This document shows positions 3 to 34,114 of a stretch of DNA of 43,478 nucleotides, one piece after another; the stretch's first letter is position 1; each line of letters begins with the position of its first letter. Position numbers and translations under genes: made by a program. The DNA comes from an uncultured Ruminococcus sp. (GTDB taxonomy: Bacteria; Bacillota; Clostridia; Oscillospirales; CAG-272): NCBI GenBank assembly GCA_964461155.1, contig CAYWTG010000001.1, positions 1 through 43,478 of the forward strand. The letters are read 5' to 3'. The notes under the pieces were generated by a model. That model searched no databases and was not told the DNA's origin. It worked only from the letters and a program-made list of their open reading frames with translations.

Positions 3-1748
3 GAGGCGGATCGTGCGTACTTCACCGAAAAGGGACTCGCGGGAATCAAGAAAGTTCCGCTTGCGGGTCTTCTCGTTGATGGCGACGAGCTCAGCAAGGA
101 GTCTCAGCTTGTAAACAACGGTCAGCGCATGAATCAGGCGAGATACCCGAACAAGCCTTTCATGGATTATGAGGAGAAGTTCCTCGTAGACCCTGTAGAC
201 CGCGCGGGCGGCGATTATCCGTCCGAGTGGACCGTTCGACTCACCGACCCCGTAATGCTTAAAAGAATAGAAAACTACCACACATTCAAGGGAACGGAGA
301 TCATCGGATACCTCGCACAGCCCTATATGTGCAACGCGCAGGAGATCGCCTCTTACGACCCAGAGGAGAAAATAATCACGTTTACAACGGCCTCGTTCCA
401 GGGCACCGGAAACTACACGAACCAGTTCTCGTTCTTCTCGAACATTTCCGAGGAGCTCGACTACAAAAACGAGTACTGGGTAGACGTCGACGGAAAGACG
501 CTTTACGTTTATGAGCCCGACACCGACTATGTACTCACCACACGCGGAACGTACATCACAAGCAGCGCGGAATACGTAAGCTTCGTCGGCTTTGAGTTCT
601 GCGGTTCTTCCGACGGATTCTTCGACATCAACGCGGATCACGTCGATATCAAGCTTTGCGATATGTACGTCGGCGCGGGCAAGTTCGCTGTTATGGCGAT
701 CGGCACGCACATAAACATCAGCGAGTGCGAGCTTTCGTACCTCGCGGGCGGCGGAATCTTCCTTGAGGGACCGCTCGAGGACGTCAACAGCATCGTCTCG
801 AACGAGAGCGTCATCGACAACAACTCCATCCATGATTTCGAGCTCAAGTACAAGGTATATCTCCCCGCCGTCAGACTTTATAACACAGTCGGCGTGCGCG
901 TGTCCCACAATGAGTTCTACAACTCCACTCACAGCGCGATAATCTACGCACACGGCGCAGAGGCTCACGCATATATGCCCGATAAGGTCGGCGGACGCGG
1001 AATCGACAATATCATCGAGTACAACGTCTTCCGCAACATCATCAGAAACACAAGCGACTGCGGCGCGATCTACTCCGACCGCTCCGTCGCAAACTACGGA
1101 AACATCATTCGTTACAACATCTTCTGCTATGTCGTAAACGGAAGCTCTGCGATGAGTATTTACTTAGGCGACGCACTCTCCGGTCAGAGCGTATACGGAA
1201 ACGTCTTCTTTAACGGCGGCGGTGAGTCTATCCGCGCAGACGGACGCGACAACACCATCCGCGACAACGTGTTCATCCAGACGGAAGAAGGTCATATCGC
1301 ACTTTTCGTAAAGGCTAAGTATCGCGGAATGTACATGGGCGATAACAATCCTACCGTCGACAATCTCTGGTCGTCTCCGACATGGGGCACGTACTACTAC
1401 AGCTCGGCACTTCTTCCCGCGGCGGGAACGGCAGAGTGGGATCTGTGGAACAAGCGTTGGCCGACTCTTATGAAGATAAAGACCGATCTTTCAGAGCTTC
1501 CCGCGCTTCAGGACGACGAGGACTTCATCTTCAATCCGTCACATAATGTCGTAAAGGACAACTACTCTTTCGGTACGACGGATCACGCCATCGATGAGGA
1601 CGTATATAAATACGGCACGGTCGAAAACAACCCCGTCTTCTCGCTCGATGAGAACCCGATCTTCACAAATCCCGCACGCGGTGATTACAGCATAAGAGAG
1701 GACGCGGACTTCTTCAAGATCCCGTTCTACGAGATCGGCAGATATTAA
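3..1748 (+). CDS. Right-handed parallel beta-helix (PbH1) repeat protein, 5'-partial (frame is open to the window edge)
   Basis: The frame of the 129..1748 ORF has no stop back to position 3, so the gene starts off-window. It carries repeated PbH1-like turns: VIDNNSIHDF, VSHNEFYNS, IIEYNVFRNI, IIRYNIFCYV, VYGNVFFNGG, TIRDNVFIQ. Confidence 0.75.
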   Translation, partial: EADRAYFTEKGLAGIKKVPLAGLLVDGDELSKESQLVNNGQRMNQARYPNKPFMDYEEKFLVDPVDRAGGDYPSEWTVRLTDPVMLKRIENYHTFKGTEIIGYLAQPYMCNAQEIASYDPEEKIITFTTASFQGTGNYTNQFSFFSNISEELDYKNEYWVDVDGKTLYVYEPDTDYVLTTRGTYITSSAEYVSFVGFEFCGSSDGFFDINADHVDIKLCDMYVGAGKFAVMAIGTHINISECELSYLAGGGIFLEGPLEDVNSIVSNESVIDNNSIHDFELKYKVYLPAVRLYNTVGVRVSHNEFYNSTHSAIIYAHGAEAHAYMPDKVGGRGIDNIIEYNVFRNIIRNTSDCGAIYSDRSVANYGNIIRYNIFCYVVNGSSAMSIYLGDALSGQSVYGNVFFNGGGESIRADGRDNTIRDNVFIQTEEGHIALFVKAKYRGMYMGDNNPTVDNLWSSPTWGTYYYSSALLPAAGTAEWDLWNKRWPTLMKIKTDLSELPALQDDEDFIFNPSHNVVKDNYSFGTTDHAIDEDVYKYGTVENNPVFSLDENPIFTNPARGDYSIREDADFFKIPFYEIGRY

Positions 1749-10350: not shown

Positions 10351-10731
10351 GTGCGAGTGTTAAGCTATACTATGTCTTTTGCCGTCGGCGCGTTCGTCTA
10401 TACGGCAGTTGAGATCGCTTTCAGAGGATATACCCATTGGAGCATGGCTCTCACGGGCGGCGCGTGCCTTGCGCTCCTTTATATGTTCAACGAAAAGCTG
10501 CCCGCGCGGCACAGCGTGCTAAAGTGGATCGTCGGCGGCCTCTGCATAACCGCAGTCGAGTTCGCCGTCGGCTGTGTCGTGAATCTCGCGCTCGGGCAAA
10601 ACGTGTGGGACTACTCCGATGTGAGATTTAACCTGCTCGGTCAGATATGCCTCCCGTTTTCGCTCGCGTGGTGCCTACTCTCGATACCGGGATTTTATAT
10701 TTGCGATATTATAAGGAAATATGTGAAGTGA
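10351..10731 (+). CDS. Small polytopic membrane protein (CmpB / putative ABC-transporter type IV like), GTG start
   Basis: Four hydrophobic helices. The NVWDYSDVRFNLLGQICLPFSLAW motif resembles PF06541. A ggag RBS sits before the GTG. Confidence 0.55.
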   Translation: MRVLSYTMSFAVGAFVYTAVEIAFRGYTHWSMALTGGACLALLYMFNEKLPARHSVLKWIVGGLCITAVEFAVGCVVNLALGQNVWDYSDVRFNLLGQICLPFSLAWCLLSIPGFYICDIIRKYVK

Positions 10732-11607: not shown

Positions 11608-11652
11608 ACGACCCTCCCGCGTCGATACGGCGTGCGGAGGGCGTCGTTTTTT
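11608..11652 (+). terminator. Intrinsic terminator
   Basis: acgaccctcccgc...gcggagggcgtcgt hairpin followed by TTTTTT. Confidence 0.75.
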
Positions 11653-11801: not shown

Positions 11802-11830
11802 TTGACACGCGGGGCGATACATGGTATAAT
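11802..11830 (+). promoter_or_regulatory. Consensus sigma-A promoter of the TerB/ATPase/helicase cassette
   Basis: TTGACA (11802-11807), 17-nt spacer ending in TGG, TATAAT (11825-11830). Confidence 0.7.
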
Positions 11831-11878
11831 ATAAAGAAACGAACTAATGTTTGAAAGCTGTTTTTCGGGAGGTGCAAG

Positions 11879-13633
11879 GTGAAAGATCGGTTTGATGATT
11901 TCGACGAGCTGTTATTCAATATGTCGCCGTCGTCGCGAAAAACTTACACTCCGCCCAAGCGAAATTCGCACAGCACGGACGGCGTGGAGCTCACACTCGA
12001 AGAAAACGACGAAAAGCTACCTGAGAAAAAGCTCGCCGCGGAGAGAAAGGTCAGAACCGCGCGATATACTGTCCCGGAGGGCGCGGAAAAGCCTTCGAGT
12101 GCGTCTTTTGCTCCGCACGGTGTCGAGAGAGAATATGACGCAAACGGTAGGTTTATAAAGCACGTAAAGATAATAAGCTGGCCGACGAGCGGCGGATTTT
12201 ACGAAAAATTCGCGAAGGACGCCATGGAGTCGCACAAGCTTCGCGGCACGCGCGCGCCGCACGTCCCGTTTTTCTCGTATCTGCCGCGATTCGCACAGAT
12301 GAACGCCGCTCAGTGGGCGTACTACCTCTACATGAAAGAGAGAGCCGCGTGCGGAGTCGGACTTCCCGAAGCCGACCTTTCGTATATCATACTTTACATA
12401 TACGAGATCATAAATCTTGACGGGATCATCCCGCCCGAGCAGGGTGCGGCCATGCTTGCCTCTGTGTGGATGCTTTACCGCAAGGTGCACCCCATGCTCG
12501 ATAAATATATGTCCGAGTGGATGGCGGATTATTGCTTAATACACGGGCTTTCCGTTCCTAAGATACTTTATCCCGATATCGCCTCTCTCGCCGCGCCGAG
12601 CACGGTCAAAGAGTTTTACGCAGAGAGCGTGTTCTCCGACGTGAAGTCCGAGACGGGGCATCTGTTCAGGCTCACGCTGTCCGACTACAACATACAAAAG
12701 AGCCGTTACGCCTCGAAATACGACGATTTTGAAGAGCGATGCAACCGCGTCTTCGACGAGACCGTCGCGGAGCAGCTCGAATGCGAAAGCGGCATATTCG
12801 ACTCGCGACTTCTTCGCCGCATAACGGTCAAGCGTACCGCATTTTGCGGAGCACTTTGCGCGTCGAAGGTCAAAAAGACGCTCGAGCTTGAGCTTGTGAC
12901 GCCGTTCCACGCTCCCGTGATGAGACGGGTCGTGACTGATATCATGAAAGGTGCGGAAAACGCCGTGCGTGCGGGGCTCGGAATACGCTCGCGCCTGAAC
13001 GCACCGCCGCTCACCGGACGCGCGGCAAGTGCCGCAAAGGAGCTCGCCCGCGAGAGCGAATACATCGACCTTTACGCCGCTTTGAGCGATACTCTGTCGC
13101 CCGAAAATGCGGCACTTCTCGAAAAAAACTCATGGCGAAACGCGGAGATACTCACGGATGCGGATCTCGAAGAGAAATTCGACGAAACGGACCTTACGAC
13201 CGCGCCGAGCGTCGCCTCGGTGAAAGATTCATCGACAGTCGCGTCAAGTGACGCATCAAATCCCGTGCCGCCCGATTCCGCCGCCTCCGCCGCTGCACCG
13301 ACGTGCGAAGTTCGTGCGGACATTGAGCTTCAAAACGAGCAAGGGGGAGCACCGGCCGAGGCGGGAAGCGAGACTTTTGCGAAAGCGGACGCGGCACTCG
13401 GCGAGAGCGGTGAGGAGACGCTTCGCGAGGCACTCGGCGAGAGCTTGTACTCTTTGCTGTCTGCCGCCGCCGACGGCAAGTCGTTTGCCGCCGCTTGCAG
13501 AAGCGCGAATGTGTTCGCGGACGACGCGGCACGGCGCATAAACGAGGGAGCTTTCGACATCGTCGGAGACGTGCTTCTCGAAGCCGACGGCACGGACTAC
13601 ATTTTCATCGAAGATTACAGAGAATTTTTATAG
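11879..13633 (+). CDS. sngA: TerB-N / TerB-C domain protein (Shango SngA-like), GTG start
   Basis: GGGAGG RBS lies 6 nt before the GTG. TerB_N-like core: HVPFFSYLPRFAQMNAAQWAYYLYMKERAACG...LSYIILYIYEIINL...VWMLYRKVHPMLDKYMSEWMADYCLIHGL. TerB_C-like tail: ARRINEGAFDIVGDVLLEADGTDYIFIEDY. Confidence 0.7.
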   Translation: MKDRFDDFDELLFNMSPSSRKTYTPPKRNSHSTDGVELTLEENDEKLPEKKLAAERKVRTARYTVPEGAEKPSSASFAPHGVEREYDANGRFIKHVKIISWPTSGGFYEKFAKDAMESHKLRGTRAPHVPFFSYLPRFAQMNAAQWAYYLYMKERAACGVGLPEADLSYIILYIYEIINLDGIIPPEQGAAMLASVWMLYRKVHPMLDKYMSEWMADYCLIHGLSVPKILYPDIASLAAPSTVKEFYAESVFSDVKSETGHLFRLTLSDYNIQKSRYASKYDDFEERCNRVFDETVAEQLECESGIFDSRLLRRITVKRTAFCGALCASKVKKTLELELVTPFHAPVMRRVVTDIMKGAENAVRAGLGIRSRLNAPPLTGRAASAAKELARESEYIDLYAALSDTLSPENAALLEKNSWRNAEILTDADLEEKFDETDLTTAPSVASVKDSSTVASSDASNPVPPDSAASAAAPTCEVRADIELQNEQGGAPAEAGSETFAKADAALGESGEETLREALGESLYSLLSAAADGKSFAAACRSANVFADDAARRINEGAFDIVGDVLLEADGTDYIFIEDYREFL

Positions 13634-13677
13634 GATATTTGAGAGTTAAGACCATTTAGGAATATTACGGAGGAGCT

Positions 13678-15048
13678 ATGAACACCGAACGTATACCAAA
13701 AAGAATACTCGGCTCGCTTTTTTCCGCGATCTCCGCGGGAGTCGTGCCGCGCGTCGGCGCACCGTATGTGGCCATAGGCCGAGTCGAGGAGATAGAGTCG
13801 CTCACCGATCAGCTTCGCCGCGTTGCCGACGGAGAGGGCGGCACGAGATTTATCGTCGGACGCTACGGTTCGGGAAAAAGCTTTTTGATACAGCTCATGC
13901 GCACTTATGCCTCCGAGCACGGATTTGTCAGCGCGGACTGCGACCTGTCCCCCGAGCGCAGACTCGCCGGCGCGGGCGGGCTCGCCACATATCGTGAGCT
14001 CATGAAAAATCTCTCATGTAAGGCATCTCCCGACGGCGGGGCTCTCGGCGTTATTATCGGACGCTGGTATTCCTCGGTCTGCGACAGGCTCACGGACGCG
14101 GGATTTTCACCGAGCGATGAGGACTTCAAAACGCGCGTGCTTCGCGAGATCGTGCGCGACTCGCGCACATTCGAGGGAGCGGTCGGCGGATTTGATTTCG
14201 CACTTGTCGTCAGCGAATACTGCCGTGCATACGGCGACGGCGACGACGAGAAAATGTCGGCCTGCCTCAGATGGCTTCGCGGAGAGTATGCGAACCGCAC
14301 GGAGGCGCGTCGTTCGACGGGACTGCGCACGGTGTCGGTCATCGACGATTCGAACTGGTTTGAGTACATAAAGCTCGTCTGCGCGCTCGTGCGCCACGTC
14401 GGCTACGCGGGACTTTGCGTGTTCATCGACGAGGGCGTGAACCTTTACAAGATAGTCAACAGAATATCGCGAGAGGCGAATTACGAGAAGCTTCTCTCGA
14501 TGTACAACGATACGATGCAGGGCAGAGCGGAGGGACTCATGCTCGTTTTCGGCGGAACTCCCGCTTTTTTGGAGGACACAAGACGCGGGCTCTTCAGCTA
14601 CGAGGCACTCAGAAGCCGCCTGTGCGACAGCAGATTTGTGACCGAGAGCGACGCGAAATTAAAAAACATGACCGGCCCCGTAATACGCCTGCGCCGCCTG
14701 TCCGACGATGAGCTTCTCGCGCTTCTCATGAGACTCACGTCGCTCCACGCGGCATATCGCGCATGGACTCCCTGCGTAAACGAAGAACAGATGACGGAGT
14801 TTCTCACCTCGTCGCTCGCACGCGCGGGGGCAGACGAGATGATAACGCCGCGTGAGATAATCCGCGACTACGTTTCGCTTCTCGAGCTGCTTTTCCAAAA
14901 TCCCCGCGAGAGCTTCGACTCGCTTTTTGAAAACGAGCGTCGCCGTGCTTCGGGCACCAAAGCCACGCGAGAGTCGAGCACCGACGAGAAAAAGGTCGGA
15001 GAGGCGGAAAACTCGCGCCGCATATCCGCAGAGGATATCATATTTTAA
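13678..15048 (+). CDS. sngB: DUF2791 / BrxD-like P-loop ATPase (Shango SngB-like)
   Basis: Walker A IVGRYGSGKSF, Walker B GLCVFIDEG, GGAGGA RBS. It starts 44 nt after the TerB gene. Confidence 0.7.
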   Translation: MNTERIPKRILGSLFSAISAGVVPRVGAPYVAIGRVEEIESLTDQLRRVADGEGGTRFIVGRYGSGKSFLIQLMRTYASEHGFVSADCDLSPERRLAGAGGLATYRELMKNLSCKASPDGGALGVIIGRWYSSVCDRLTDAGFSPSDEDFKTRVLREIVRDSRTFEGAVGGFDFALVVSEYCRAYGDGDDEKMSACLRWLRGEYANRTEARRSTGLRTVSVIDDSNWFEYIKLVCALVRHVGYAGLCVFIDEGVNLYKIVNRISREANYEKLLSMYNDTMQGRAEGLMLVFGGTPAFLEDTRRGLFSYEALRSRLCDSRFVTESDAKLKNMTGPVIRLRRLSDDELLALLMRLTSLHAAYRAWTPCVNEEQMTEFLTSSLARAGADEMITPREIIRDYVSLLELLFQNPRESFDSLFENERRRASGTKATRESSTDEKKVGEAENSRRISAEDIIF

Positions 15049-15072
15049 ACTTAGCTTAAAGAGGGCTGTCAT

Positions 15073-17469
15073 ATGGACGCACAGCGAATATTCGGCTCAT
15101 ACTCACCGTTTATACGTGAGTTTATATACAAGCGCGGCTGGGACTCGCTTCACGATCTCCAGCTTGAGGCGGCGCACGTGATATTCGATACCGACGACGA
15201 TCTTCTGCTTTCCTCGGGCACGGCTTCGGGAAAAACAGAGGCCGCGCTCTTTCCGATACTTTCAGAGCTTCATCGCGCCGCGCCGTGCTCTTTCGGAGCT
15301 TTGTATATCGCGCCGCTTAAATCGCTGATAAACGATCAGTTCGAGAGAATAACGGAGCTTGTCGACGCTGCGGGGATAAATGTCTTTCACTGGCACGGAG
15401 ACGTGCCCGCGTCCGCAAAGGCGCGCGCTCTCAAAAATCCTTCGGGCTTATTGCAGATCACGCCGGAGTCGCTCGAGGCACTTCTCATACGCCGCCCCGG
15501 CGACATTTCGCGACTTTTTTGCGACCTCAGATATGTTATAATAGATGAACTGCACGTGCTCATGGGCACGGATCGCGGCGGGCAGATACTCTGTCAGCTC
15601 GCACGCATTGCCCATGCGACCGGACACGACGCACGACGCGTCGGACTTTCGGCGACGATGGGCGACGCACGCATGGCGGCGCAGTGGCTTTCGGGCGGCA
15701 GAGATCGTGCGATCTCCGTCCCCGTTTCGACCGGCGGCCGACTGAGGATCAGACTCGGTGCGGAGCATTTTTTCATCCATTCAAAGGACGAGGACGCGGC
15801 AGGCGAGGACGCCTACGACGCTTTTCTCGGAAATGAGTACGCACTTCAAGGCGAGAACTGCGCACGTGACGACAGAAGCGGGACTTCGCATGACGCCGCG
15901 CACGGATCGGGCTCGCAAGACGGCGAGCTGCGAGACGACGACTCGAAGTTCGGCGACTCGGAGGCGGATGCGACAAGTGAGTCGGGAAAATACCGCGCGG
16001 ACGCGGGATTTGAATACGTCTACGACTGCGTGTACGGCAAAAAGGCACTTGTATTTTCAAATTCTCGCGAGGAGACCGAGTACGTCACGGCCACGCTCAG
16101 GCAGATCGCCGATCGCAGAGGCGAGGATGACGTTTTTCTCATCCATCACGGAAATCTGTCGGCGTCACTCCGTGAGGAGGCTGAGGCGAAGCTTCGCGAT
16201 GACGATATACGCCGACTTGCCGTCTGCGCCACGGTGACGCTCGAGCTCGGCGTCGACATCGGCAGGCTCGAACGCGTCGTGCAGATCGGCGCACCGAATA
16301 CCGTATCGTCATTTTTGCAGAGGCTCGGTCGCTCGGGCAGACGCGGCGACGCACCCGAGATGATGATGGTCTTCCGTGAGGAAGAACCGCTGTCGGGCGC
16401 GCCGCTCCCCGCGCTCATCCCGTGGGAGCTGCTTCGCGGCATCGCCGTGATCCAGCTGTATGTGGAGGAACGCTTCATCGAGCCGCCGACGCAAGTTAAC
16501 TGCCCGTACAGCCTCATGTTTCAGCAGATACTTTCACTTCTTTGCGGCGAAGGCGCAATGCTTCCGTCGCGCCTCGCGGAGCGGCTGTATTCGCTCCCGC
16601 CGTTTAAGGACGTGCCGCGCGAGGACTGCAAGGTGCTCCTTGCCGACATGATTAATAACGACTTTCTCGAGATAACCGAGGACGGCGAGCTCCTTGTGGG
16701 GCTTCGCGGTGAGCGACTTACCGATTCGTTCAAATTCTTCGCCGTCTTCAAGGACAGCGAGGATTTCACCGTCCGCTCGGGCTCCGAGGAGATAGGCATG
16801 ATAAGCGCGGCACCGCCCGTCGGCGACAGATTCGCGCTTGCGGGACGCGTGTGGGAGGTCGAAGAATGCGATCTTCCGCGACGCATCGTGTACGCGCATC
16901 CGATCAAAGGAAAAATGCAGGTCTCGTGGCCGGGCGACAGCGGTGAGATACACACACGCGTGCTCGAGAGGATGAGGCGCGTGCTGTGCGAAGATACCGA
17001 ATATCCGTATCTGAAAGAGAACGCGATAAAGCGTTTGCGCTCGGCTCGCCGCGTGGCGAGAAGCACCGGCATGACAAGTCGCGAGTTGCTCAGCCTCGGC
17101 GGTGACAGCTTCGTCTGGTTCCCATGGCTCGGCACGCGAGGTATGCGAGCTGCACGCAGATTTGTAAAAAGCCTCGGCGACACCCTCGGAATATCGGCGG
17201 TGGAGTCCGAGAGCACATATATCACATTTCGCTCGGAGCGATGTCAAAATGCCGATGAGATACGCCGACATTTCGCGGAGATCGCCGCAGACGGCATAGA
17301 CGCGTATTCGCTCGTCGGCGAGAACGAAGCTCCCGCATACAACAAATACGACACATTCATTCCGCGTGAGCTGCTCAGACGCGCGTATGTTGAGGACAGG
17401 CTCGCGACGGACGAGCTGAGACTCAGACTTATGCACGGATGCGACGTCGATGTCGGCGCACGATCGTGA
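15073..17469 (+). CDS. sngC: SF2 DEAD/DEAH-box helicase, Lhr/BrxHI-like (Shango SngC-like)
   Basis: Motif I SSGTASGKTEAA, motif II VIIDELH, motif III LSATMG, motif V-like ATVTLELGVDIG, motif VI QRLGRSGRRG. There is a long Lhr-like C-terminal extension and an acidic insert between the RecA lobes. Confidence 0.8.
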   Translation: MDAQRIFGSYSPFIREFIYKRGWDSLHDLQLEAAHVIFDTDDDLLLSSGTASGKTEAALFPILSELHRAAPCSFGALYIAPLKSLINDQFERITELVDAAGINVFHWHGDVPASAKARALKNPSGLLQITPESLEALLIRRPGDISRLFCDLRYVIIDELHVLMGTDRGGQILCQLARIAHATGHDARRVGLSATMGDARMAAQWLSGGRDRAISVPVSTGGRLRIRLGAEHFFIHSKDEDAAGEDAYDAFLGNEYALQGENCARDDRSGTSHDAAHGSGSQDGELRDDDSKFGDSEADATSESGKYRADAGFEYVYDCVYGKKALVFSNSREETEYVTATLRQIADRRGEDDVFLIHHGNLSASLREEAEAKLRDDDIRRLAVCATVTLELGVDIGRLERVVQIGAPNTVSSFLQRLGRSGRRGDAPEMMMVFREEEPLSGAPLPALIPWELLRGIAVIQLYVEERFIEPPTQVNCPYSLMFQQILSLLCGEGAMLPSRLAERLYSLPPFKDVPREDCKVLLADMINNDFLEITEDGELLVGLRGERLTDSFKFFAVFKDSEDFTVRSGSEEIGMISAAPPVGDRFALAGRVWEVEECDLPRRIVYAHPIKGKMQVSWPGDSGEIHTRVLERMRRVLCEDTEYPYLKENAIKRLRSARRVARSTGMTSRELLSLGGDSFVWFPWLGTRGMRAARRFVKSLGDTLGISAVESESTYITFRSERCQNADEIRRHFAEIAADGIDAYSLVGENEAPAYNKYDTFIPRELLRRAYVEDRLATDELRLRLMHGCDVDVGARS

Positions 17470-17728
17470 GGAAAGGACATAATATGACAATAAACGAAAG
17501 ACTTGCCGAGGAACTCGACATTCGTCAAAAACAGGCCGACGCCGCAGTCGAGCTTTTGGACGCGGGCAATACCGTGCCGTTCATCTCCCGCTACCGAAAG
17601 GAGGTCACGGGAGGCCTTGACGACGACATACTTCGCCGACTTTCCGAAAGACTTCAGTATCTGCGCTCGCTTGAAGAGAAGCGCGAGGATATAAAGAAGC
17701 TCATCGACGCGCAGGGAAAGCTGACAGA

Positions 17729-18438
17729 CGAGCTCGCAGAGGCGATCGGCGCGGCGCAGACGGTCACGGAGCTTGACGACCTCTACCGCCCGTACCGTCC
17801 GAAAAGACGCACGCGCGCCTCGGTCGCTCGCGAACGCGGCCTTGAGGGACTCGCGAAGCTCATCACCGAACAGGAAACAGGCGTCGATATCAACGCGGCC
17901 GCAGCCGAATACGTAAACGCGGAGCTCGGCGTGGAAGACGCGCAGAGCGCGATTGCGGGCGCGTGCGACATCATAGCCGAGGATATCTCCGACAACGCGG
18001 ATTTCAGACGAGTCATTCGCACGATGACGCGCACTCGCGGCACGATCGAGTCAAAGAAGATCGCGGACGGCGCGACCTACGAGCAGTATTACGAATACAG
18101 CGAGCCGCTGTCGAAGATACCGCCGCACCGCGTGCTCGCGCTCAACCGCGCGGAAAAAGAGGGAGTTCTCAAAGTCACCGTGCTCCCACCGAGAGAGAAT
18201 ATTCTCTCGTATCTCGAGGGAGAAGTGATAAAAAATCAGGACAGTCCCGCATCCGCTCTCCTGAAAGCGACGAGCGAGGACAGCTACGACAGACTCATTG
18301 CGCCGTCGGTCGAGCGAGAGATACGCGCGGAGCTGTTCGACGCGGCGTCGGAGTCGGCGATAGCACTTTTCTCGAAGAATCTTCGCGGGCTTTTAATGCA
18401 GGCACCGATCAAGGGAAAGACCGTTCTCGGATACGACC
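17729..18438 (+). repeat. Tandem duplication, copy 1 (710 bp)
   Basis: A block-by-block comparison shows it is identical to 18439-19148. The ORF track confirms this with duplicate ORFs at 17783..18043 and 18493..18753. Confidence 0.97.
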
Positions 18439-19148
18439 CGAGCTCGCAGAGGCGATCGGCGCGGCGCAGACGGTCACGGAGCTTGACGACCTCTACCGCC
18501 CGTACCGTCCGAAAAGACGCACGCGCGCCTCGGTCGCTCGCGAACGCGGCCTTGAGGGACTCGCGAAGCTCATCACCGAACAGGAAACAGGCGTCGATAT
18601 CAACGCGGCCGCAGCCGAATACGTAAACGCGGAGCTCGGCGTGGAAGACGCGCAGAGCGCGATTGCGGGCGCGTGCGACATCATAGCCGAGGATATCTCC
18701 GACAACGCGGATTTCAGACGAGTCATTCGCACGATGACGCGCACTCGCGGCACGATCGAGTCAAAGAAGATCGCGGACGGCGCGACCTACGAGCAGTATT
18801 ACGAATACAGCGAGCCGCTGTCGAAGATACCGCCGCACCGCGTGCTCGCGCTCAACCGCGCGGAAAAAGAGGGAGTTCTCAAAGTCACCGTGCTCCCACC
18901 GAGAGAGAATATTCTCTCGTATCTCGAGGGAGAAGTGATAAAAAATCAGGACAGTCCCGCATCCGCTCTCCTGAAAGCGACGAGCGAGGACAGCTACGAC
19001 AGACTCATTGCGCCGTCGGTCGAGCGAGAGATACGCGCGGAGCTGTTCGACGCGGCGTCGGAGTCGGCGATAGCACTTTTCTCGAAGAATCTTCGCGGGC
19101 TTTTAATGCAGGCACCGATCAAGGGAAAGACCGTTCTCGGATACGACC
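18439..19148 (+). repeat. Tandem duplication, copy 2 (710 bp)
   Basis: Identical to 17729-18438. There is 1 nt of junction microhomology: c at 17729, 18439 and 19149. Confidence 0.97.
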
Positions 19149-20389
19149 CCGGTTACAGAACGGGATGTAAGCTTGCCGTCGTCAGCCCCACCGGAAGCGT
19201 GCTCGATACGGCTGTCATCTATCCGACAAAGCCGCACGAGAAGATCGCGGAGTCGCGCCGCATAGTCGAGCGACTTATAAAGAAATACGGAGTCGACGTT
19301 GTCGCCATCGGTAACGGCACGGCATCGGGCGAGAGCGAGATGTTTATCGCGGAGCTGCTCGGTGATATGAAGTGCGACACGAAGTACGTCATCGTATCGG
19401 AGGCGGGCGCGTCGGTTTATTCCGCTTCAAAGACGGGGGCCGAGGAGTTCCCCGAATTTGATGTAACGCAGCGCAGCGCGGTGTCGATAGCACGCCGACT
19501 GCAAGACCCGCTGGCGGAGCTTGTGAAGATCGAGCCGAAATCGATCGGCGTCGGACAGTATCAGCACGATATGAAAGAGGCGAGACTTAACGAGGCACTC
19601 GGCGGCGTCGTCGAAAGCTGCGTAAACTCGGTCGGCGTCGATCTCAACACCGCGTCGTATTCGCTTCTCTCGTATATCGCGGGAATAAATATCACAAGTG
19701 CCAAGAATATTGTGAAATACCGCGACGCAAACGGAGCGTTTTCGACCCGAGAGGGCGTTTTGAAGGTGCCGCGCTTCGGAGCGAAGGCTTATGAGCAGGC
19801 GGCGGGCTTCTTGCGAGTCGCCGACTCGCGTGAGGTGCTCGACAACACGGGAGTTCACCCCGAGTCGTACGGCACGGCACGCGCACTTCTCGAGCTCTTC
19901 GGATATACCGAGGACGACGTGCGCGACGGAAAGCTCACGGATCTTGACGCGCGTGTAAAGAAAGAGGGCGCGTCGCGCATTGCGGAACGCCTCGGTTGCG
20001 GAGTCCCGACGCTTAATGACATCGTCGGCGAGCTGATGAAGCCGGGACGCGACGTGAGAGACTCGCTCCCGCCCGTGCAGCTCAAAGAGCGCGTGCTCAC
20101 AATCGACGAGCTCACCGAGGGAATGGAGCTTTCGGGCGTAGTCAGAAATGTCATAGACTTCGGCGCGTTTGTCGACATCGGAGTGCATCAGGACGGACTT
20201 GTCCACATCTCGCAGATATCGGATAAATTCATAAAGCATCCCTCCGAGGTGCTGTCCGTCGGCATGAACGTAAAGGTGCGCGTGCTCAGCATTGACCGCG
20301 CTCGCGGCAGAATCGGCCTCACGATGAAGAAAAAGTGATCATTCGCGAGGACAAAGTGACGAATTTATAAGTTTTTTTCGTCAAAGACG

Positions 20390-20418
20390 TTGACAGATGT
20401 GTTAAGACGTGATATAAT
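20390..20418 (+). promoter_or_regulatory. Orphan consensus sigma-A promoter with no protein gene downstream
   Basis: TTGACA (20390-20395), 17-nt spacer, TATAAT (20413-20418). The next protein gene is convergent, on the minus strand. Confidence 0.65.
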
Positions 20419-20424
20419 GTGAGC

Positions 20425-20557
20425 AGAGGAAAAGTATTTAACAAAGCGCGATACCGACCGGAGCTGTCCCCCATGTTTGCGGCAGATGTCCTTTGTTTAA
20501 GGTAATAGTTAAAAAGGACACACGGAGCCGCATTTCTGCAGAGACGTGTGCCCTTTT
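20425..20557 (+). ncRNA. Candidate small RNA running from the orphan promoter to the first hairpin (family not recognised; extent uncertain, may read through to 20722)
   Basis: A consensus promoter lies upstream. The hairpin at 20516-20553 is followed by TTTT. The only ORF is a 10-codon peptide. Confidence 0.3.
20516..20553. terminator. Bidirectional terminator-like hairpin
   Basis: ggacacacg...cgtgtgccc stem with one mismatch, A5 upstream and T4 downstream. Confidence 0.5.
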
Positions 20558-20678
20558 GCTTATTCGGAAAAGAAAGAGAGCGAAATGAAATCAAGGCTCC
20601 GTTTTCGGAAGACGAACATCTGAAATGACCTACCGAAAAGTCAAAATAATATCTTCGTTCCGTCTTATTCTTCATAAA

Positions 20679-20720
20679 AGCCGATCCCCCACCGTTTAAC
20701 ACCGCGGTGGGGGATCGGCT
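20679..20720. terminator. Strong bidirectional intrinsic terminator
   Basis: agccgatcccccaccg...cggtgggggatcggct 16-bp stem, flanked by AAAA and TTTT. It lies directly after the stop of the minus-strand oxidoreductase gene. Confidence 0.85.
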
Positions 20721-20728
20721 TTTGTGCC

Positions 20729-25510: not shown

Positions 25511-25996
25511 TCACTTCACCTCTCTGTATTCGGCGAAGCGCAGGTGCGACAGTGCTTTTTTCGTGTGGAAAGTCCACTGATCGTGAAGCACCTCGGTCTT
25601 CAGCCTTTTTACCGTTTCTTCCGCGTCATACACGCCCGTCTCGAAAAAACGGATCGACTGATAAACATTGTCATCGGCTACCGGACCGATATGCATATCC
25701 GCAGTATTGTCAAACACTATGCCGCGTCGATTGTCGACGACGAACATAAGCCATTCAAGGTCTGCCGATTCAAACTTTTTTATGTTTATGCTCTCTTTTG
25801 CGCTCTCATAGTCAAATTCATAAGTTGACACATAGCCGACCGTTTTGTCCTCGCGACGCATTTTGATTTTTGCCCAACGCTCTGCCTGCTCATAGGAAGT
25901 CGTGGTGTAGAATCCGATTCCGAAATCGAGAAAGTTTTCACCCGCGCGTATTTTCGGAGCTTCAACCAAAACCGTACTGCCGTGATAGATAATCAT
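25511..25996 (-). CDS. DUF3990-like protein with an ADP-ribosyltransferase-like H-Y-E motif pattern
   Basis: MIIYHGS (H5), FGIGFYTTT (Y30), VSTYEFDY (E60). GGAGGA lies 6 nt before the ATG at 25996. Confidence 0.75.
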   Translation of the reverse strand: MIIYHGSTVLVEAPKIRAGENFLDFGIGFYTTTSYEQAERWAKIKMRREDKTVGYVSTYEFDYESAKESINIKKFESADLEWLMFVVDNRRGIVFDNTADMHIGPVADDNVYQSIRFFETGVYDAEETVKRLKTEVLHDQWTFHTKKALSHLRFAEYREVK

Positions 25997-26032
25997 CAAA
26001 GTTCCTCCGATTTATTTTTGTCTTCCGTACAT

Positions 26033-30726: not shown

Positions 30727-31833
30727 ATGCTGCGTATACTGCATACCGGCGATATACATCTCGATACGCCGTTTTCGGGCATCGATTCGGCACAGGCGCA
30801 GGTGAGACGAAACGAGCTTCGCGCCGCCTTTACCTCGATGCTCCACTATGTAAAGTGTGAGAAGATCGACCTTCTTCTCATTGCCGGCGACCTCTTCGAC
30901 GCGCATTTTGTCACGCGAGAGACGCTCGTGCTCATAAAGCGCGAGCTTGAAGCTCTGAAGTGCCCCGTCGTCATAAGCCCCGGAAATCACGATTCGGTCG
31001 GCGAGTGTGCCGTGTGGCAAAAGGGAGTATTCTCCGACAACACATACATCTTCACGAAGGATACACTCGAGCATTTCGACTTTCCGAGCCTCAACACGCG
31101 AGTTTGGGGCTGGGCTTTCACGTCGAACACGATGGACGAGAACCCGCTCGGCGGCCACCGCGCGACGGAGGACGGCGGAGAGGGAATGATAAATCTTCTC
31201 TGCGCTCACGGCGACCTTATGCCGTCTCGCAGACCGAGTTGCCCGCTGAGCGTCGCGGAACTCGAGAGATTCGGCGCGGATTATGCGGCACTCGGCCACA
31301 TCCACAATCCCCGCGAGTATACGGATCGCATCGCTTACTGCGGCTGCCTCGAGGGACGCGCGTTTGACGAGCTCGGCGTAAAGGGCGCACTGCTCGTCGA
31401 GATCGACGGGGAGCGCATCACGAGAAAGAAGCTTCGCTTCTCGAAGAGAAGATATGAGCTCGACGAGCTCGATGTCTTCGGTGCGTCGTCGAATACCGAG
31501 CTTGCCGAGAAGATCCGCAATTTTATCGCCGCAAAGCGGTACGGGGATGACACGCTCCTCAGACTCACGCTGAAAGGCGAGGTCTCACCCGCATTTTCGG
31601 TAAATGCGGCGGCACTCGAGTCGTGCTCGGATCGCGTGTTCGCACTCAAAATAGTCGACGAGACCGTGCCGATGCTCGATGTCGACCGCCTCAGACGTGA
31701 CCCGACCCTCAGAGGCGAGCTTTACCGCGTGCTCGAGGGTGCGCTGAGTTCGACGGATGCTTCCGAGAGAGAACGTGCGTCGGCGGCACTTCGCGTCGGA
31801 CTTGCAGCGATCGCGGGCGAGGATATACCGTGA
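30727..31833 (+). CDS. SbcD-like metallophosphoesterase nuclease (YhaO/SbcF-like)
   Basis: Motifs: MLRILHTGDIHLD, IAGDLFD, SPGNHD, LGHIH. Confidence 0.85.
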   Translation: MLRILHTGDIHLDTPFSGIDSAQAQVRRNELRAAFTSMLHYVKCEKIDLLLIAGDLFDAHFVTRETLVLIKRELEALKCPVVISPGNHDSVGECAVWQKGVFSDNTYIFTKDTLEHFDFPSLNTRVWGWAFTSNTMDENPLGGHRATEDGGEGMINLLCAHGDLMPSRRPSCPLSVAELERFGADYAALGHIHNPREYTDRIAYCGCLEGRAFDELGVKGALLVEIDGERITRKKLRFSKRRYELDELDVFGASSNTELAEKIRNFIAAKRYGDDTLLRLTLKGEVSPAFSVNAAALESCSDRVFALKIVDETVPMLDVDRLRRDPTLRGELYRVLEGALSSTDASERERASAALRVGLAAIAGEDIP

Positions 31834-31858
31834 TGCGCACGGCGATGAATGGAGATAA

Positions 31859-34114
31859 ATGATGTACATAAAAGAGTTACACATCGGTGCTTTCGGCCCG
31901 ATCCTCGACACGCGCATTTCGCTTGATCGCGGGCTGAATATCATCGAGGGCAAAAACGAAACGGGCAAGACCTCCGTTGCCATGTTCATTAAATTTATTT
32001 TTTACGGTCTGTCGGCACGCGGCACTGACAGCGTCTCGGAAAGACGCCTTTACGTCAATCGCGAGCGAGGAGTGGCCTCGGGCTATGCCGTGATCGCGGT
32101 GAAGTCTTCACGCGGTGAGGAGCGAGAGATCCGCATCGAGCGAACGGTCGCGGAAAGAAGCGACGCCGACGGGCGCACGAAATATTCCGAGCGACTTCGT
32201 GTGCTCGACCACGTCGGAGGAATGCCGCTCGGCGTCAAGGGACAGCCGGGAGAATACTTCTTCGGCGTGCCCGAGCAGGTCTTCACAAGCTCCGTGTTTG
32301 CCGCGCAGGGTGGCGGGATTCGCCCCGACAGCACGGCACTTCGCGAGGCGGTCGAAAACATGATCCTCGCCGCCGACGAGAATGTGAGCGTGAAACGCGC
32401 CGTGGATTCGATCGATCGAGAGCGCGTGAGACTCATGCACAAGAAAGGCTCGGGAGGCGAGATATCCGCGCTCGAGCAGAAGCTCGCAAATTCCGAAAGA
32501 GCACTCATCGAAGCGCAGCAGAGCGCGTCGACGCTCATAAAATCGGAGCTTTCGCTCTCCGACGTCAAAGAGAAGCTCGCCTCCGCGAAGACACGCCTCG
32601 CACAGCTCGAGGAGCTCTCGGGCGCGATGGACACGCTTTCGCGCGATGACGTTAAGCGCAGGATAAGCGATGGTGAAAATAAGCTTTCCGCGCTCAAAAA
32701 AGAGCTCGCCGACGGAACACTTGCGGGAGCGGATGAAAAGTTCCGTTCGACGCTTGCGGTGGCCGTGCGCGACGTGGATCGTGCGGACAAGCTCGAGGCA
32801 GAATATAAAAAGAAGCTTGACACCGTGAGCGAGAATTTTCCGGACGGTGAACCCGGCGATCCCGAGGAAGACGCGCTTTACGCCGAGCGGATGCTCCGCC
32901 GCCGCTCGAACACGCTCGTCCCCGCGCTGATACTCACAATCATCGGTGTCGCGGCATTCGTCGCATCATTTGTGCTTCGCCCCGGAAACAGCCTCTTCTT
33001 GCCGGTATTTTGCTCGGGAGCCGTCACGTTCATGGCGGGTGTCTCGATGCTCATCCTTTCTTCTGCATGGAAGCAGGAGGCCGCGGCTGTCTTCGACGAC
33101 TGGAATGTTGAAGATCTCGAAGAGCTTCGCACGACGACAGGAGAGCTCGGCGCGCTCTATCGCACGCTTGACGGAGACAGGATAGCCGCAGAGAACGCGC
33201 AACTCGCATCGGCCGAGGCCGCAGATACGCTCGACATACTCCTTGACGAAGCCAAGCTTGAAAAAGTCGAAAACGAAAGCACTCGTGAGAGGGCACGCAG
33301 ACTTGTGATATACTCCTCCGAATGCACTAAGAAAAAGAGAACGCTCGAGGATGAGGTATTAAAGCTCGATGGACGCCTTTCGGCGGATCGCGCGCTTCTC
33401 GAACGTGATTTCGCGACGGAGACCGAAAGCAATCCCGAGCTTGTCGCGCGAGTCGGCGCGATGAGTGAGGACGAGCGACGCGAGGTCGTCCGCGAACTCC
33501 GCTTTACGAGAACGAAGATAGAAAACCTGCACGGCCGCGAGCTTGAGCTCGAAAGAGAGTGCTCTGCCGCACGTGCGCTTTCGGCAGACCCCGCTGCGCT
33601 CTTTGAGGAAGTTGAGTCGTTGCGACTCGAGATCGCCGAAAAACGCAAGAAGCTCGACTCGTACCTACTCGCGACGGAAGCATTGCAGACCGCCAGCGAG
33701 AACATTCGACTCTCCGTCCTGCCGAGACTTACGCGCGCCGCCTCCGATATCATGTCGGGCGTGACGGACGGAAAATACGACGAGATCGGTATCTCGCCGT
33801 CGTTTGACATGAACTTCCGCTTTGACGCACTTCAGACGCTTGAGCTCGACTTCCTTTCGACTGGAACGAGAGAGGCGGCGTATCTCGCGCTTCGCCTCGC
33901 ACTGACTCGCGCACTCTACGACGAAGAGCACAGACCGCCGATGATACTCGACGAGAGCCTTGCATCTCTCGATGAGGACAGAGTACGCCGCGCGACGGCG
34001 ATCCTTGCGGAGAGCGACACGCAGATATTCCTCTTTACCTGCCGCAGACTCGAATCCTCCGTCACGCACGGCGGACATATCGTTTCGATGACGGGAAAGC
34101 GCGGTGAGATATGA
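31859..34114 (+). CDS. SMC/SbcC-like AAA ATPase with two central TM helices (YhaN/SbcE-like). The start may be the second ATG at 31862.
   Basis: Walker A EGKNETGKTS and Walker B PMILDESLASLD. Long coiled-coil segments are present. A hydrophobic pair sits mid-protein: LVPALILTIIGVAAFVASFVL and FLPVFCSGAVTFMAGVSMLILSSAW. Confidence 0.8.
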   Translation: MMYIKELHIGAFGPILDTRISLDRGLNIIEGKNETGKTSVAMFIKFIFYGLSARGTDSVSERRLYVNRERGVASGYAVIAVKSSRGEEREIRIERTVAERSDADGRTKYSERLRVLDHVGGMPLGVKGQPGEYFFGVPEQVFTSSVFAAQGGGIRPDSTALREAVENMILAADENVSVKRAVDSIDRERVRLMHKKGSGGEISALEQKLANSERALIEAQQSASTLIKSELSLSDVKEKLASAKTRLAQLEELSGAMDTLSRDDVKRRISDGENKLSALKKELADGTLAGADEKFRSTLAVAVRDVDRADKLEAEYKKKLDTVSENFPDGEPGDPEEDALYAERMLRRRSNTLVPALILTIIGVAAFVASFVLRPGNSLFLPVFCSGAVTFMAGVSMLILSSAWKQEAAAVFDDWNVEDLEELRTTTGELGALYRTLDGDRIAAENAQLASAEAADTLDILLDEAKLEKVENESTRERARRLVIYSSECTKKKRTLEDEVLKLDGRLSADRALLERDFATETESNPELVARVGAMSEDERREVVRELRFTRTKIENLHGRELELERECSAARALSADPAALFEEVESLRLEIAEKRKKLDSYLLATEALQTASENIRLSVLPRLTRAASDIMSGVTDGKYDEIGISPSFDMNFRFDALQTLELDFLSTGTREAAYLALRLALTRALYDEEHRPPMILDESLASLDEDRVRRATAILAESDTQIFLFTCRRLESSVTHGGHIVSMTGKRGEI

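Follow-up and report, generated by a model that had tools for sequence, protein, structure and literature searches.

We analyzed a 43,478-nucleotide (nt) stretch of DNA from an uncultured Ruminococcus sp. (contig CAYWTG010000001.1, assembly GCA_964461155.1; hereafter the window), in which three consecutive genes, judged from their sequences, almost certainly form a chromosomal Shango-type operon, sngA-sngB-sngC (SngABC), of an uncultured, Oscillospiraceae-like gut Clostridium. Shango systems combine a TerB-like protein, an ATPase and a DEAD/DEAH helicase, and they act against phages in Escherichia coli (Millman et al. 2022, 10.1101/2022.05.11.491447) and in Pseudomonas aeruginosa PA14 (Johnson et al. 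2023, PMC10250203). We found no paper reporting a Shango mechanism in the literature. The best overall explanation of our observations is that the operon encodes a nucleic-acid surveillance machine directed against phages or invading DNA, which we consider probable.

We assign the locus to the Shango type because the PADLOC models for SngA, SngB and SngC are the best matches of genes 1, 2 and 3, in the canonical order, because the Pfam domains of the three products agree with these matches, and because none of the domains expected for bacteriophage exclusion (BREX) or tellurite-resistance (Ter) clusters was found among the larger open reading frames of the window. The first product matches the SngA model over amino acids (aa) 97-582 (E = 4.2e-38), with no second-best match, and contains the Pfam domains TerB_N (9.3e-15) and TerB_C (5.7e-8), both of which exceed their gathering scores. 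The second matches PF10923 (BrxC_BrxD) over its full length (3.8e-139), and the third matches DEAD (3e-25) and Helicase_C (4e-15). An original prediction for this DNA had proposed the same domain trio and a Shango assignment; Pfam and PADLOC support both, with strong hidden Markov model (HMM) matches for genes 1 and 2, and the Shango composition it gave agrees with the literature. The motifs it had quoted could all be located, namely VPFFSY, QWAYYLYMK, SYIILYIYEIINL, WMADYCLIHGL and INEGAFDIVGDVLLE as TerB_N- and TerB_C-like signatures in SngA, intact Walker A (GRYGSGKSF) and Walker B (CVFIDEG) motifs in SngB, and a full superfamily 2 (SF2) helicase set with DELH as motif II in SngC, which also contains a SAT motif. 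Every helicase motif is intact, without variation among the aligned homologs. The locus is classified as a divergent copy of an already catalogued family that standard tools can call, and its subfamily is peculiar in lacking a TerB domain, in having hypervariable disordered segments and in its housekeeping context with an operonic fusion to tex.

The ATPase/helicase pair is not confined to Shango. BrxD belongs to the ORC/Cdc6 AAA+ class, is tightly linked with BrxHI in type 2 BREX and has been proposed to be a helicase loader (PMC12839542), and the original prediction had correctly named this pair. Genes 2 and 3 could be what remains of a type 2 BREX (Pgl) system, or a satellite of one, a reading that draws on the name of PF10923, on the tight BrxD-BrxHI linkage and on the second-best PADLOC ranks of BrxD (3e-47) and BrxHI (6e-124). 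However, gene 2 scores 503 bits against the SngB model (1.4e-151, positions 1-423 of 439) versus 160 bits against BrxD, and gene 3 scores 762 bits against SngC (2.6e-229, positions 5-713 of 720) versus 413 bits against BrxHI. The NCBIfam BrxD model yields 158 bits for SngB at a cutoff of 350, and no NCBIfam model reaches its cutoff for any of the three genes. Domains of PglZ, PglX, BrxC and PglW were found neither among the larger open reading frames (ORFs) of the window nor in the Pfam-annotated related loci, and a TerB_N/TerB_C protein as the first gene is a feature of Shango and not of BREX. We rejected the BREX remnant on the HMM scores and the missing domains, and consider it extremely improbable. 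By its sequence, SngB is a stand-alone BrxD-like ORC/Cdc6-type AAA+ ATPase; a sequence search of the PDB with SngB returned no match.

The domain names TerB_N and TerB_C in gene 1 also invite the reading that the locus is part of a Ter system, that is, a tellurite-resistance or TerB-dependent stress system. TerB proper (PF05099) was not detected in SngA, either in the whole protein (E ≤ 0.01) or in its segments (E ≤ 5), although the domain is found in the 769-aa SngA from a Salmonella plasmid (1e-7, aa 519-624), which has the layout TerB_N + TerB + TerB_C. No TerB, TerD or TerC domain occurs among the larger ORFs of the window, and the conserved partners of SngA are an ATPase and a helicase. 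We rejected the Ter-cluster reading because no PF05099 was detected in gene 1 and no ter domains among the larger ORFs around it, and we assign it next to no probability. The SngA copies from Paenibacillus and Clostridium estertheticum also have no PF05099, so that the absence of TerB looks like a subfamily trait and no ground for detection models to exclude the locus. Because all three copies do without it, TerB proper appears dispensable for the family. This would weaken the idea of a TerB 'membrane surveillance' and suggest that the conserved core is made up of TerB_N, TerB_C and the central domain.

We modeled SngA with AlphaFold (AF2; mean predicted local distance difference test score (pLDDT) 77, 35-sequence alignment) and obtained two ordered blocks, aa ~80-428 and 512-584. 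The residues with pLDDT <50 (1-5, 13-21, 23-74 and 429-511) are probably disordered; the last of these segments directly precedes TerB_C and is of low complexity. Across the alignment, mean identity to the window SngA is 22% and 8% in the disordered segments and 43-51% in the folded domains, and the low overall identity of SngA to its relatives is thus due to its two disordered segments. Within the clade, the folded domains are 55-99% conserved and drift is confined to the disordered parts. A strain variant (P0001) that is 92% identical overall illustrates this: its folded domains are 97-99% identical, and the low-complexity, hypervariable linker (aa 429-511, window 13163-13411) is 61% identical, with indels. 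Invariant residues of the central alpha/beta domain include Gly-324, Lys-332, Arg-349, Thr-353, Glu-360, Asn-361 and Arg-364. SngA has 3304 relatives among representative clusters and no match in a sequence search of the PDB. A Foldseek search of the PDB with the SngA model gave no significant global match (best E 0.76), and relaxed Pfam scans of the N-terminus and of the central domain gave none at all. Weak local Foldseek matches (E 1.6-2.1, probability 0.87-0.92) cover ~63 residues of the winged helix-turn-helix (wHTH) of ModE/LysR regulators; Foldseek gave no query coordinates, and we tentatively map these matches to TerB_C from a helix-helix-helix-hairpin arrangement at aa 515-576. Aligning the SngA alignment to the Salmonella SngA with hhalign paired only the last 39 residues, at an uninformative probability of 9.5%.

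The AF2 model of SngC (predicted template modeling score (pTM) 0.71, pLDDT 74) is best matched in Foldseek by the Mycobacterium smegmatis Lhr core (5v9x), which spans its whole length (E 4.7e-27, query template modeling score (TMq) 0.63), followed by MrfA and then Hel308. MrfA and Lhr are likewise the best matches in a sequence search of the PDB. SngC thus models as an Lhr-core-type SF2 helicase, a class that combines RecA1, RecA2, a winged helix and domain 4 in a single chain and translocates 3'->5' on single-stranded DNA, with the activity and polarity of SngC being predicted. Its C-terminal half is very highly conserved among homologs, and a relaxed Pfam scan of this half gave a weak WH_Lhr match only. 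The acidic insert in the helicase, which had been described as a mark of this copy, is indeed present between the two RecA domains. It is not particular to the window, however, as the linker varies from a few residues to about 100 across 34 aligned homologs subfamily-wide, with the window copy on the longish side.

The three genes run in the same direction, are spaced by 44 and 24 nt in the ORF calls, and are preceded by a terminator and a TTGACA-17-TATAAT promoter (Table 1), in agreement with what had been read from the DNA before. Independent gene calls on 100% identical metagenome contigs (including L001) gave the same three products, and the three ORFs are intact and identical across three independent assemblies. 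An identical promoter, matching the consensus at 12 of 12 positions and with a TG-extended -10 element, is found upstream of sngA in two related lineages, L084 (6256-6284) and L004 (4111-4139). Since it is kept there while SngA is only ~50-67% identical, the promoter is under selection and no chance match. We predict that this strong sigma-A-type promoter drives sngA-sngB-sngC and, absent a detectable terminator, also tex. The tex gene begins directly behind the helicase gene, as the original prediction had noted together with the lack of a terminator. Indeed, no plus-strand terminator was picked up by a scan between ~15300 and the end of tex, nor does the sngC-tex junction form a stable structure (z = +0.45). 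Read-through from the operon into tex is therefore likely. The same adjacency, with sngC and tex spaced by -4 to +38 nt, is seen in L084, L004, L005 and L006.

Table 1. Features of the sngABC locus and its surroundings (window coordinates, or residues where indicated)
Feature	Position	Strand	Details
Intrinsic terminator closing the transcript of the upstream metallo-beta-lactamase (MBL)-fold gene; 5' boundary of the unit	~11608..11652	+	scan; -32.1 kcal/mol, followed by UUUUUU
Operon promoter, TTGACA-17-TATAAT	11802..11830	+	TG-extended -10; 12/12 consensus match
Shine-Dalgarno, GGGAGGTG	11867..11874	+	read from sequence; 4 nt 5' of the sngA GTG
sngA	11879..13633	+	584 aa, GTG start
SngA, disordered N-terminus	aa 1-~80		
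SngA, TerB_N	aa ~86-275		
SngA, central alpha/beta domain	aa ~276-428		
SngA, disordered acidic/Ala/Ser linker	aa 429-511		
SngA, TerB_C	aa ~512-584		
sngB	13678..15048	+	456 aa
SngB Walker A, GRYGSGKSF	13858-13884	+	motif search
SngB Walker B, CVFIDEG	14416-14436	+	motif search
sngC	15073..17469	+	798 aa
SngC motif I, SGTASGKTEA	15214-15243	+	motif search
SngC motif II, DELH	15544-15555	+	motif search
SngC acidic linker between RecA domains	~15769-15999 (aa ~233-309)	+	20 D/E in 77 residues, disordered
SngC motif VI, QRLGRSGRR	16318-16344	+	motif search
tex (transcription accessory protein)	17484..20338	+	ATG at 17484; 14 nt 3' of the sngC stop
Perfect 23-bp hairpin between convergent genes, likely bidirectional terminator 3' of tex	20673..20726	.	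-45 kcal/mol, z = -9.4

We searched the three proteins for an effector. Pfam, PADLOC and NCBIfam gave no nuclease, protease, NADase or pore domain for any of them, and the models of SngA and SngC showed none either. Because no effector domain was detected, interference appears more likely than direct cleavage or abortive killing, and together with the Lhr-core class of the SngC model this would narrow the mechanism to helicase-based interference. One possible and quite tentative scheme is a loader-helicase mechanism. Here, SngA would serve as a sensor or adaptor that marks a DNA structure, and SngB would use ATP to load or activate SngC at the marked structure. SngC may then translocate 3'->5' on single-stranded DNA (ssDNA), and strip or unwind replication, recombination or RNA:DNA intermediates that the invader needs. 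The outcome would be interference with replication or a hand-over to host nucleases, rather than cleavage by the system itself or abortive killing.

We next consider how the operon is inherited. The closest relatives are uncultured gut Clostridia, represented by metagenome-assembled genomes (MAGs) labeled 'uncultured Ruminococcus', Oscillospiraceae and Ca. Avispirillum. In a survey of 80 loci retrieved with Tex, the trio is located directly upstream of tex only in the three closest ones (L004-L006, Tex 84-91% identical), and it is absent from this position in all other retrieved loci (Tex ≤79% identical); L084 represents a fourth lineage with the same synteny as the window. Seven of the eight Shango-less loci that we inspected have an RluB/RsuA-like pseudouridine synthase gene immediately upstream of tex, and the remaining one (L009) has a MetH-like gene instead. 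Genes for RNHCP, a glycosyltransferase and MurJ precede the pseudouridine synthase in some of them, and in L005 the trio sits exactly where these four genes stand elsewhere. Pairwise identities among the five Shango-bearing lineages are 82-91% for Tex, 73-86% for SngB (one close pair 95%), 68-81% for SngC (one close pair 93%) and 47-67% for SngA (one close pair 81%). Tex, SngA, SngB and SngC all group the lineages in the same way, and we therefore infer one acquisition followed by co-divergence with tex. Recent transfer as judged by composition was rejected, the GC content of 0.58-0.60 over sngB-tex being within the range of housekeeping genes of the window such as sbcC. Under the original prediction, the trio would be accessory and not belong to a core conserved throughout the clade. 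This holds insofar as the trio is absent upstream of tex in the retrieved loci with more distant Tex; within the immediate clade, it looks vertically inherited rather than variable.

A metagenome survey with the SngC profile yielded 56 informative loci. A contiguous SngA-SngB-SngC trio is present in 40 of them, which, together with the five related lineages, bears out the trio as a conserved unit. Three loci have SngB-SngC without a detected SngA, two carry SngA and SngB at another position of the locus, and 11 (about 20%) have the helicase only. Stand-alone helicases 47-58% identical to SngC occur in L091/L092, L096, L108, L112, L116, L127 and L129, and further ones in L132, L133, L135, L138, L139 and L140; the 3.5-10 kb upstream of these helicases contain neither SngA nor SngB. 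Where their neighbors are annotated (L091/L092, L096), they stand among housekeeping genes, and two of the helicase-only orthologs (P0098 and P0131, 57-58% identical) still match the PADLOC SngC model best. One MAG (RGIG6494, which also contributed the locus L009) contains in L086 an orphan SngA-like gene (40% identity) without sngB or sngC, and its tex has no trio upstream. Behind the orphan lies a GT4/GT1/pyruvyl-transferase gene of the type that follows sngC in L094, and the orphan probably reflects a deletion of sngBC. Mobile copies exist as well: SngB homologs were found on 696 plasmids, 542 of them conjugative, and in no phage genome. A C. estertheticum plasmid copy (L098) has a relaxase gene on one side and IS110 on the other, with a UvrA paralogue coming after it, and the Salmonella plasmid copy is flanked by IS110 and toxin-antitoxin (TA) genes. 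Conjugative plasmids of Klebsiella and Salmonella widely carry the sngA-sngB pair; on a Klebsiella pneumoniae IncX3 plasmid (L100), no helicase is annotated after sngB, and blaTEM-1, OXA-9 and IS26 are found instead, which made this copy unsuitable for the comparison of complete systems.

These distributions bear on the function of the operon. We lean toward a role of the trio in this host against phages or other mobile genetic elements. Its patchy distribution and decay, seen in the orphan SngA and the helicase-only loci, are typical of accessory systems, and the mobility of the family on plasmids and the variation of the disordered SngA segments between near-identical strains point in the same direction. 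Several observations weigh against it. Anti-phage activity is known only for the E. coli and P. aeruginosa copies (PMC10250203; 10.1101/2022.05.11.491447) and for no Firmicute copy. The TerB domain, on which the Shango 'membrane surveillance' idea is based, is the one that SngA of the window lacks, and the polarity and substrate of SngC are extrapolated from Lhr at ~19% identity. The co-divergence of the trio with tex points to long vertical residence. The 43 kb of the window hold only housekeeping-type genes (an ABC transporter, NrnA-like DHH, TruB, SbcCD, a sigma factor and others), and neither mobile nor defense genes, and hence no defense island or mobile element, were found among them. 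No integrase, transposase, restriction-modification or other defense gene adjoins the trio in ~12 Pfam-annotated Clostridial contexts. Finally, repair genes follow some of the other Clostridial copies: uvrA lies 20-30 nt 3' of sngC and co-directional with it in L093, L102, L136 and L142, and sngC overlaps addB by 4 nt, followed by addA, in L106 and L110.

A different reading would account for this second set of observations: the trio could be a resident genome-maintenance or transcription-associated module in this host and not, or not only, a phage defense. Here, R-loops, stalled forks or damaged DNA would be the substrates of an Lhr-like helicase that has its own loader and adaptor and operates together with Tex, UvrA or AddAB. 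In addition to the contexts above, this reading is favored by the fixed place directly upstream of tex, without a terminator, in five lineages, by the conserved strong promoter, which suggests constitutive expression, and by mutS-mutL, found ~3 kb downstream of sngC in L095 after ApbE and MiaB. The spacing to the next gene is often overlapping or near-abutting in Clostridial trios, and the repair genes directly behind sngC, among them the UvrA paralogue of the plasmid copy L098, are co-directional with it at -4 to +30 nt; other copies lie next to S-adenosylmethionine (SAM) methyltransferase and Hsp33 genes (L089) or a GT4 glycosyltransferase gene (L094). The orthologous helicases that stand alone in housekeeping contexts are 53-58% identical, with the two that were checked still scoring best as SngC, and the identity of SngC declines about as slowly as that of Tex across Clostridia MAGs. 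The closest solved structures, Lhr and MrfA, were deposited as helicases bound to ssDNA or DNA. Both proteins act in DNA repair. Yet experiments with the E. coli and P. aeruginosa copies have shown that the family acts against phages, other members reside on conjugative plasmids and beside insertion sequence (IS) elements, and the trio is patchily distributed with losses, as in the MAG that has an orphan SngA and a tex without the trio. The uvrA and addBA links may each stem from a single lineage, and the repair-gene junctions as a whole (uvrA, addBA, mutSL) represent few independent events. We thus consider a resident module unlikely, and give the same low weight to its broader form, in which the TerB-less trio of gut Oscillospirales, instead of being island cargo, would have been resident for a long time, passed on vertically and built into housekeeping nucleic-acid operons as a module for genome maintenance or transcription-replication surveillance. 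If it were true, Shango elsewhere would be mobile derivatives of this module, or the Clostridial module a domesticated defense system. The surroundings of housekeeping genes, together with the co-divergence of the trio and tex, prompt the question of whether some 'defense' helicase modules are resident genome-maintenance systems; the pattern is suggestive and reflects few independent events.

The operon could also be a decaying, non-functional relic, as the orphan SngA, the helicase-only loci and the disrupted tex of the window (see below) might indicate. In L094 (8613-10001) and L095 (8636-10001), sngB and sngC are moreover separated by gaps of 1.1-1.4 kb in which either no gene is called or the sole ORF is one of 58 aa. 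Against decay speak the intact ORFs and their identity in the independent assemblies, the invariant catalytic motifs, the perfectly conserved promoter and the restriction of drift to disordered parts of proteins whose folded domains are conserved. A relic is very improbable in our view, and a surveillance machine against invading DNA is the reading that we retain.

Several features of the surroundings were recorded. The tex gene of the window contains an exact 710-bp tandem duplication (17729-19149; copies start at 17729 and 18439), which shifts the frame and leaves the gene as two ORFs that overlap. In contig L001, which is otherwise 100% identical, the duplication is missing and tex encodes an intact protein of 714 aa with the complete set of Tex domains; the duplication is thus either an assembly artifact or a strain-specific disruption. 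In L006, a low-coverage MAG, tex contains a single in-frame stop at ~10499-10501 (DIIA*EISD) that may be a sequencing error. Just past tex lies a second perfect TTGACA-17-TATAAT promoter (20390-20418). The region from there to the 23-bp hairpin (20390-20726) includes ~250 nt without a convincing ORF, which makes it a candidate for a small RNA or a leader; scanning the window for Rfam families and tRNAs gave no match. Apart from the window, the hairpin sequence turned up in the same-strain contig L001 alone, and the gap at this place in L084 is just 113 nt long. Farther downstream, 8-17 kb past the operon, we located a gene for a DUF3990 protein (25511-25999, minus strand) and an SbcD/SbcC-like pair (Metallophos + SMC_N/AAA_23; 30727-34114, plus strand).

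We compared the locus to known systems. The Lhr core (5v9x) and MrfA/YprA (6znp) are the best sequence and fold matches of SngC, yet they share only ~16-19% identity with it. DUF1998, which is named in the PDB entry of MrfA, was not detected in SngC by Pfam. Full-length Lhr has a long C-terminal extension, for which there is no room in the 798 residues of SngC. Unlike Lhr and MrfA, SngC is partnered with SngA and SngB and has a long disordered acidic linker between its RecA domains. Type 2 BREX shares with the window locus the pair of an ORC/Cdc6-type PF10923 ATPase and an Lhr-like helicase with wHTH, beta-barrel and Lhr-like C-terminal domain, but where BREX has PglZ, PglX, BrxC and PglW, the window locus has a TerB_N/TerB_C protein. 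Bunzi (BnzA) and Dionysus (DinB) have the loose 'Ter-associated' label in common with Shango, and the TerB protein of Ter-associated defense systems has been proposed to act as a sensor or in membrane surveillance. Bunzi and Dionysus depend on a TerB domain and on transmembrane or pore-forming partners, whereas the partners in the window trio would act on nucleic acids; domain searches detected no TerB or pore-forming domain in the trio, with no transmembrane prediction made. The closest parallel is the complete Shango system on the conjugative Salmonella Infantis plasmid pN55391 (L101), which has the same three families in the same order, orientation and close spacing, with the same Pfam domains per gene and again SngA, SngB and SngC as best PADLOC matches. 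The window copy is divergent from it, as the original prediction had put it: BLASTP identities are 35% for SngB and 29-46% for SngC, SngA gives no match, and the TerB domain (PF05099) is present in the Salmonella SngA only. Other Shango copies are found in defense hotspots, on genomic islands and on plasmids with IS and TA neighbors, whereas the window copy is chromosomal, lies in housekeeping surroundings and is joined to tex.

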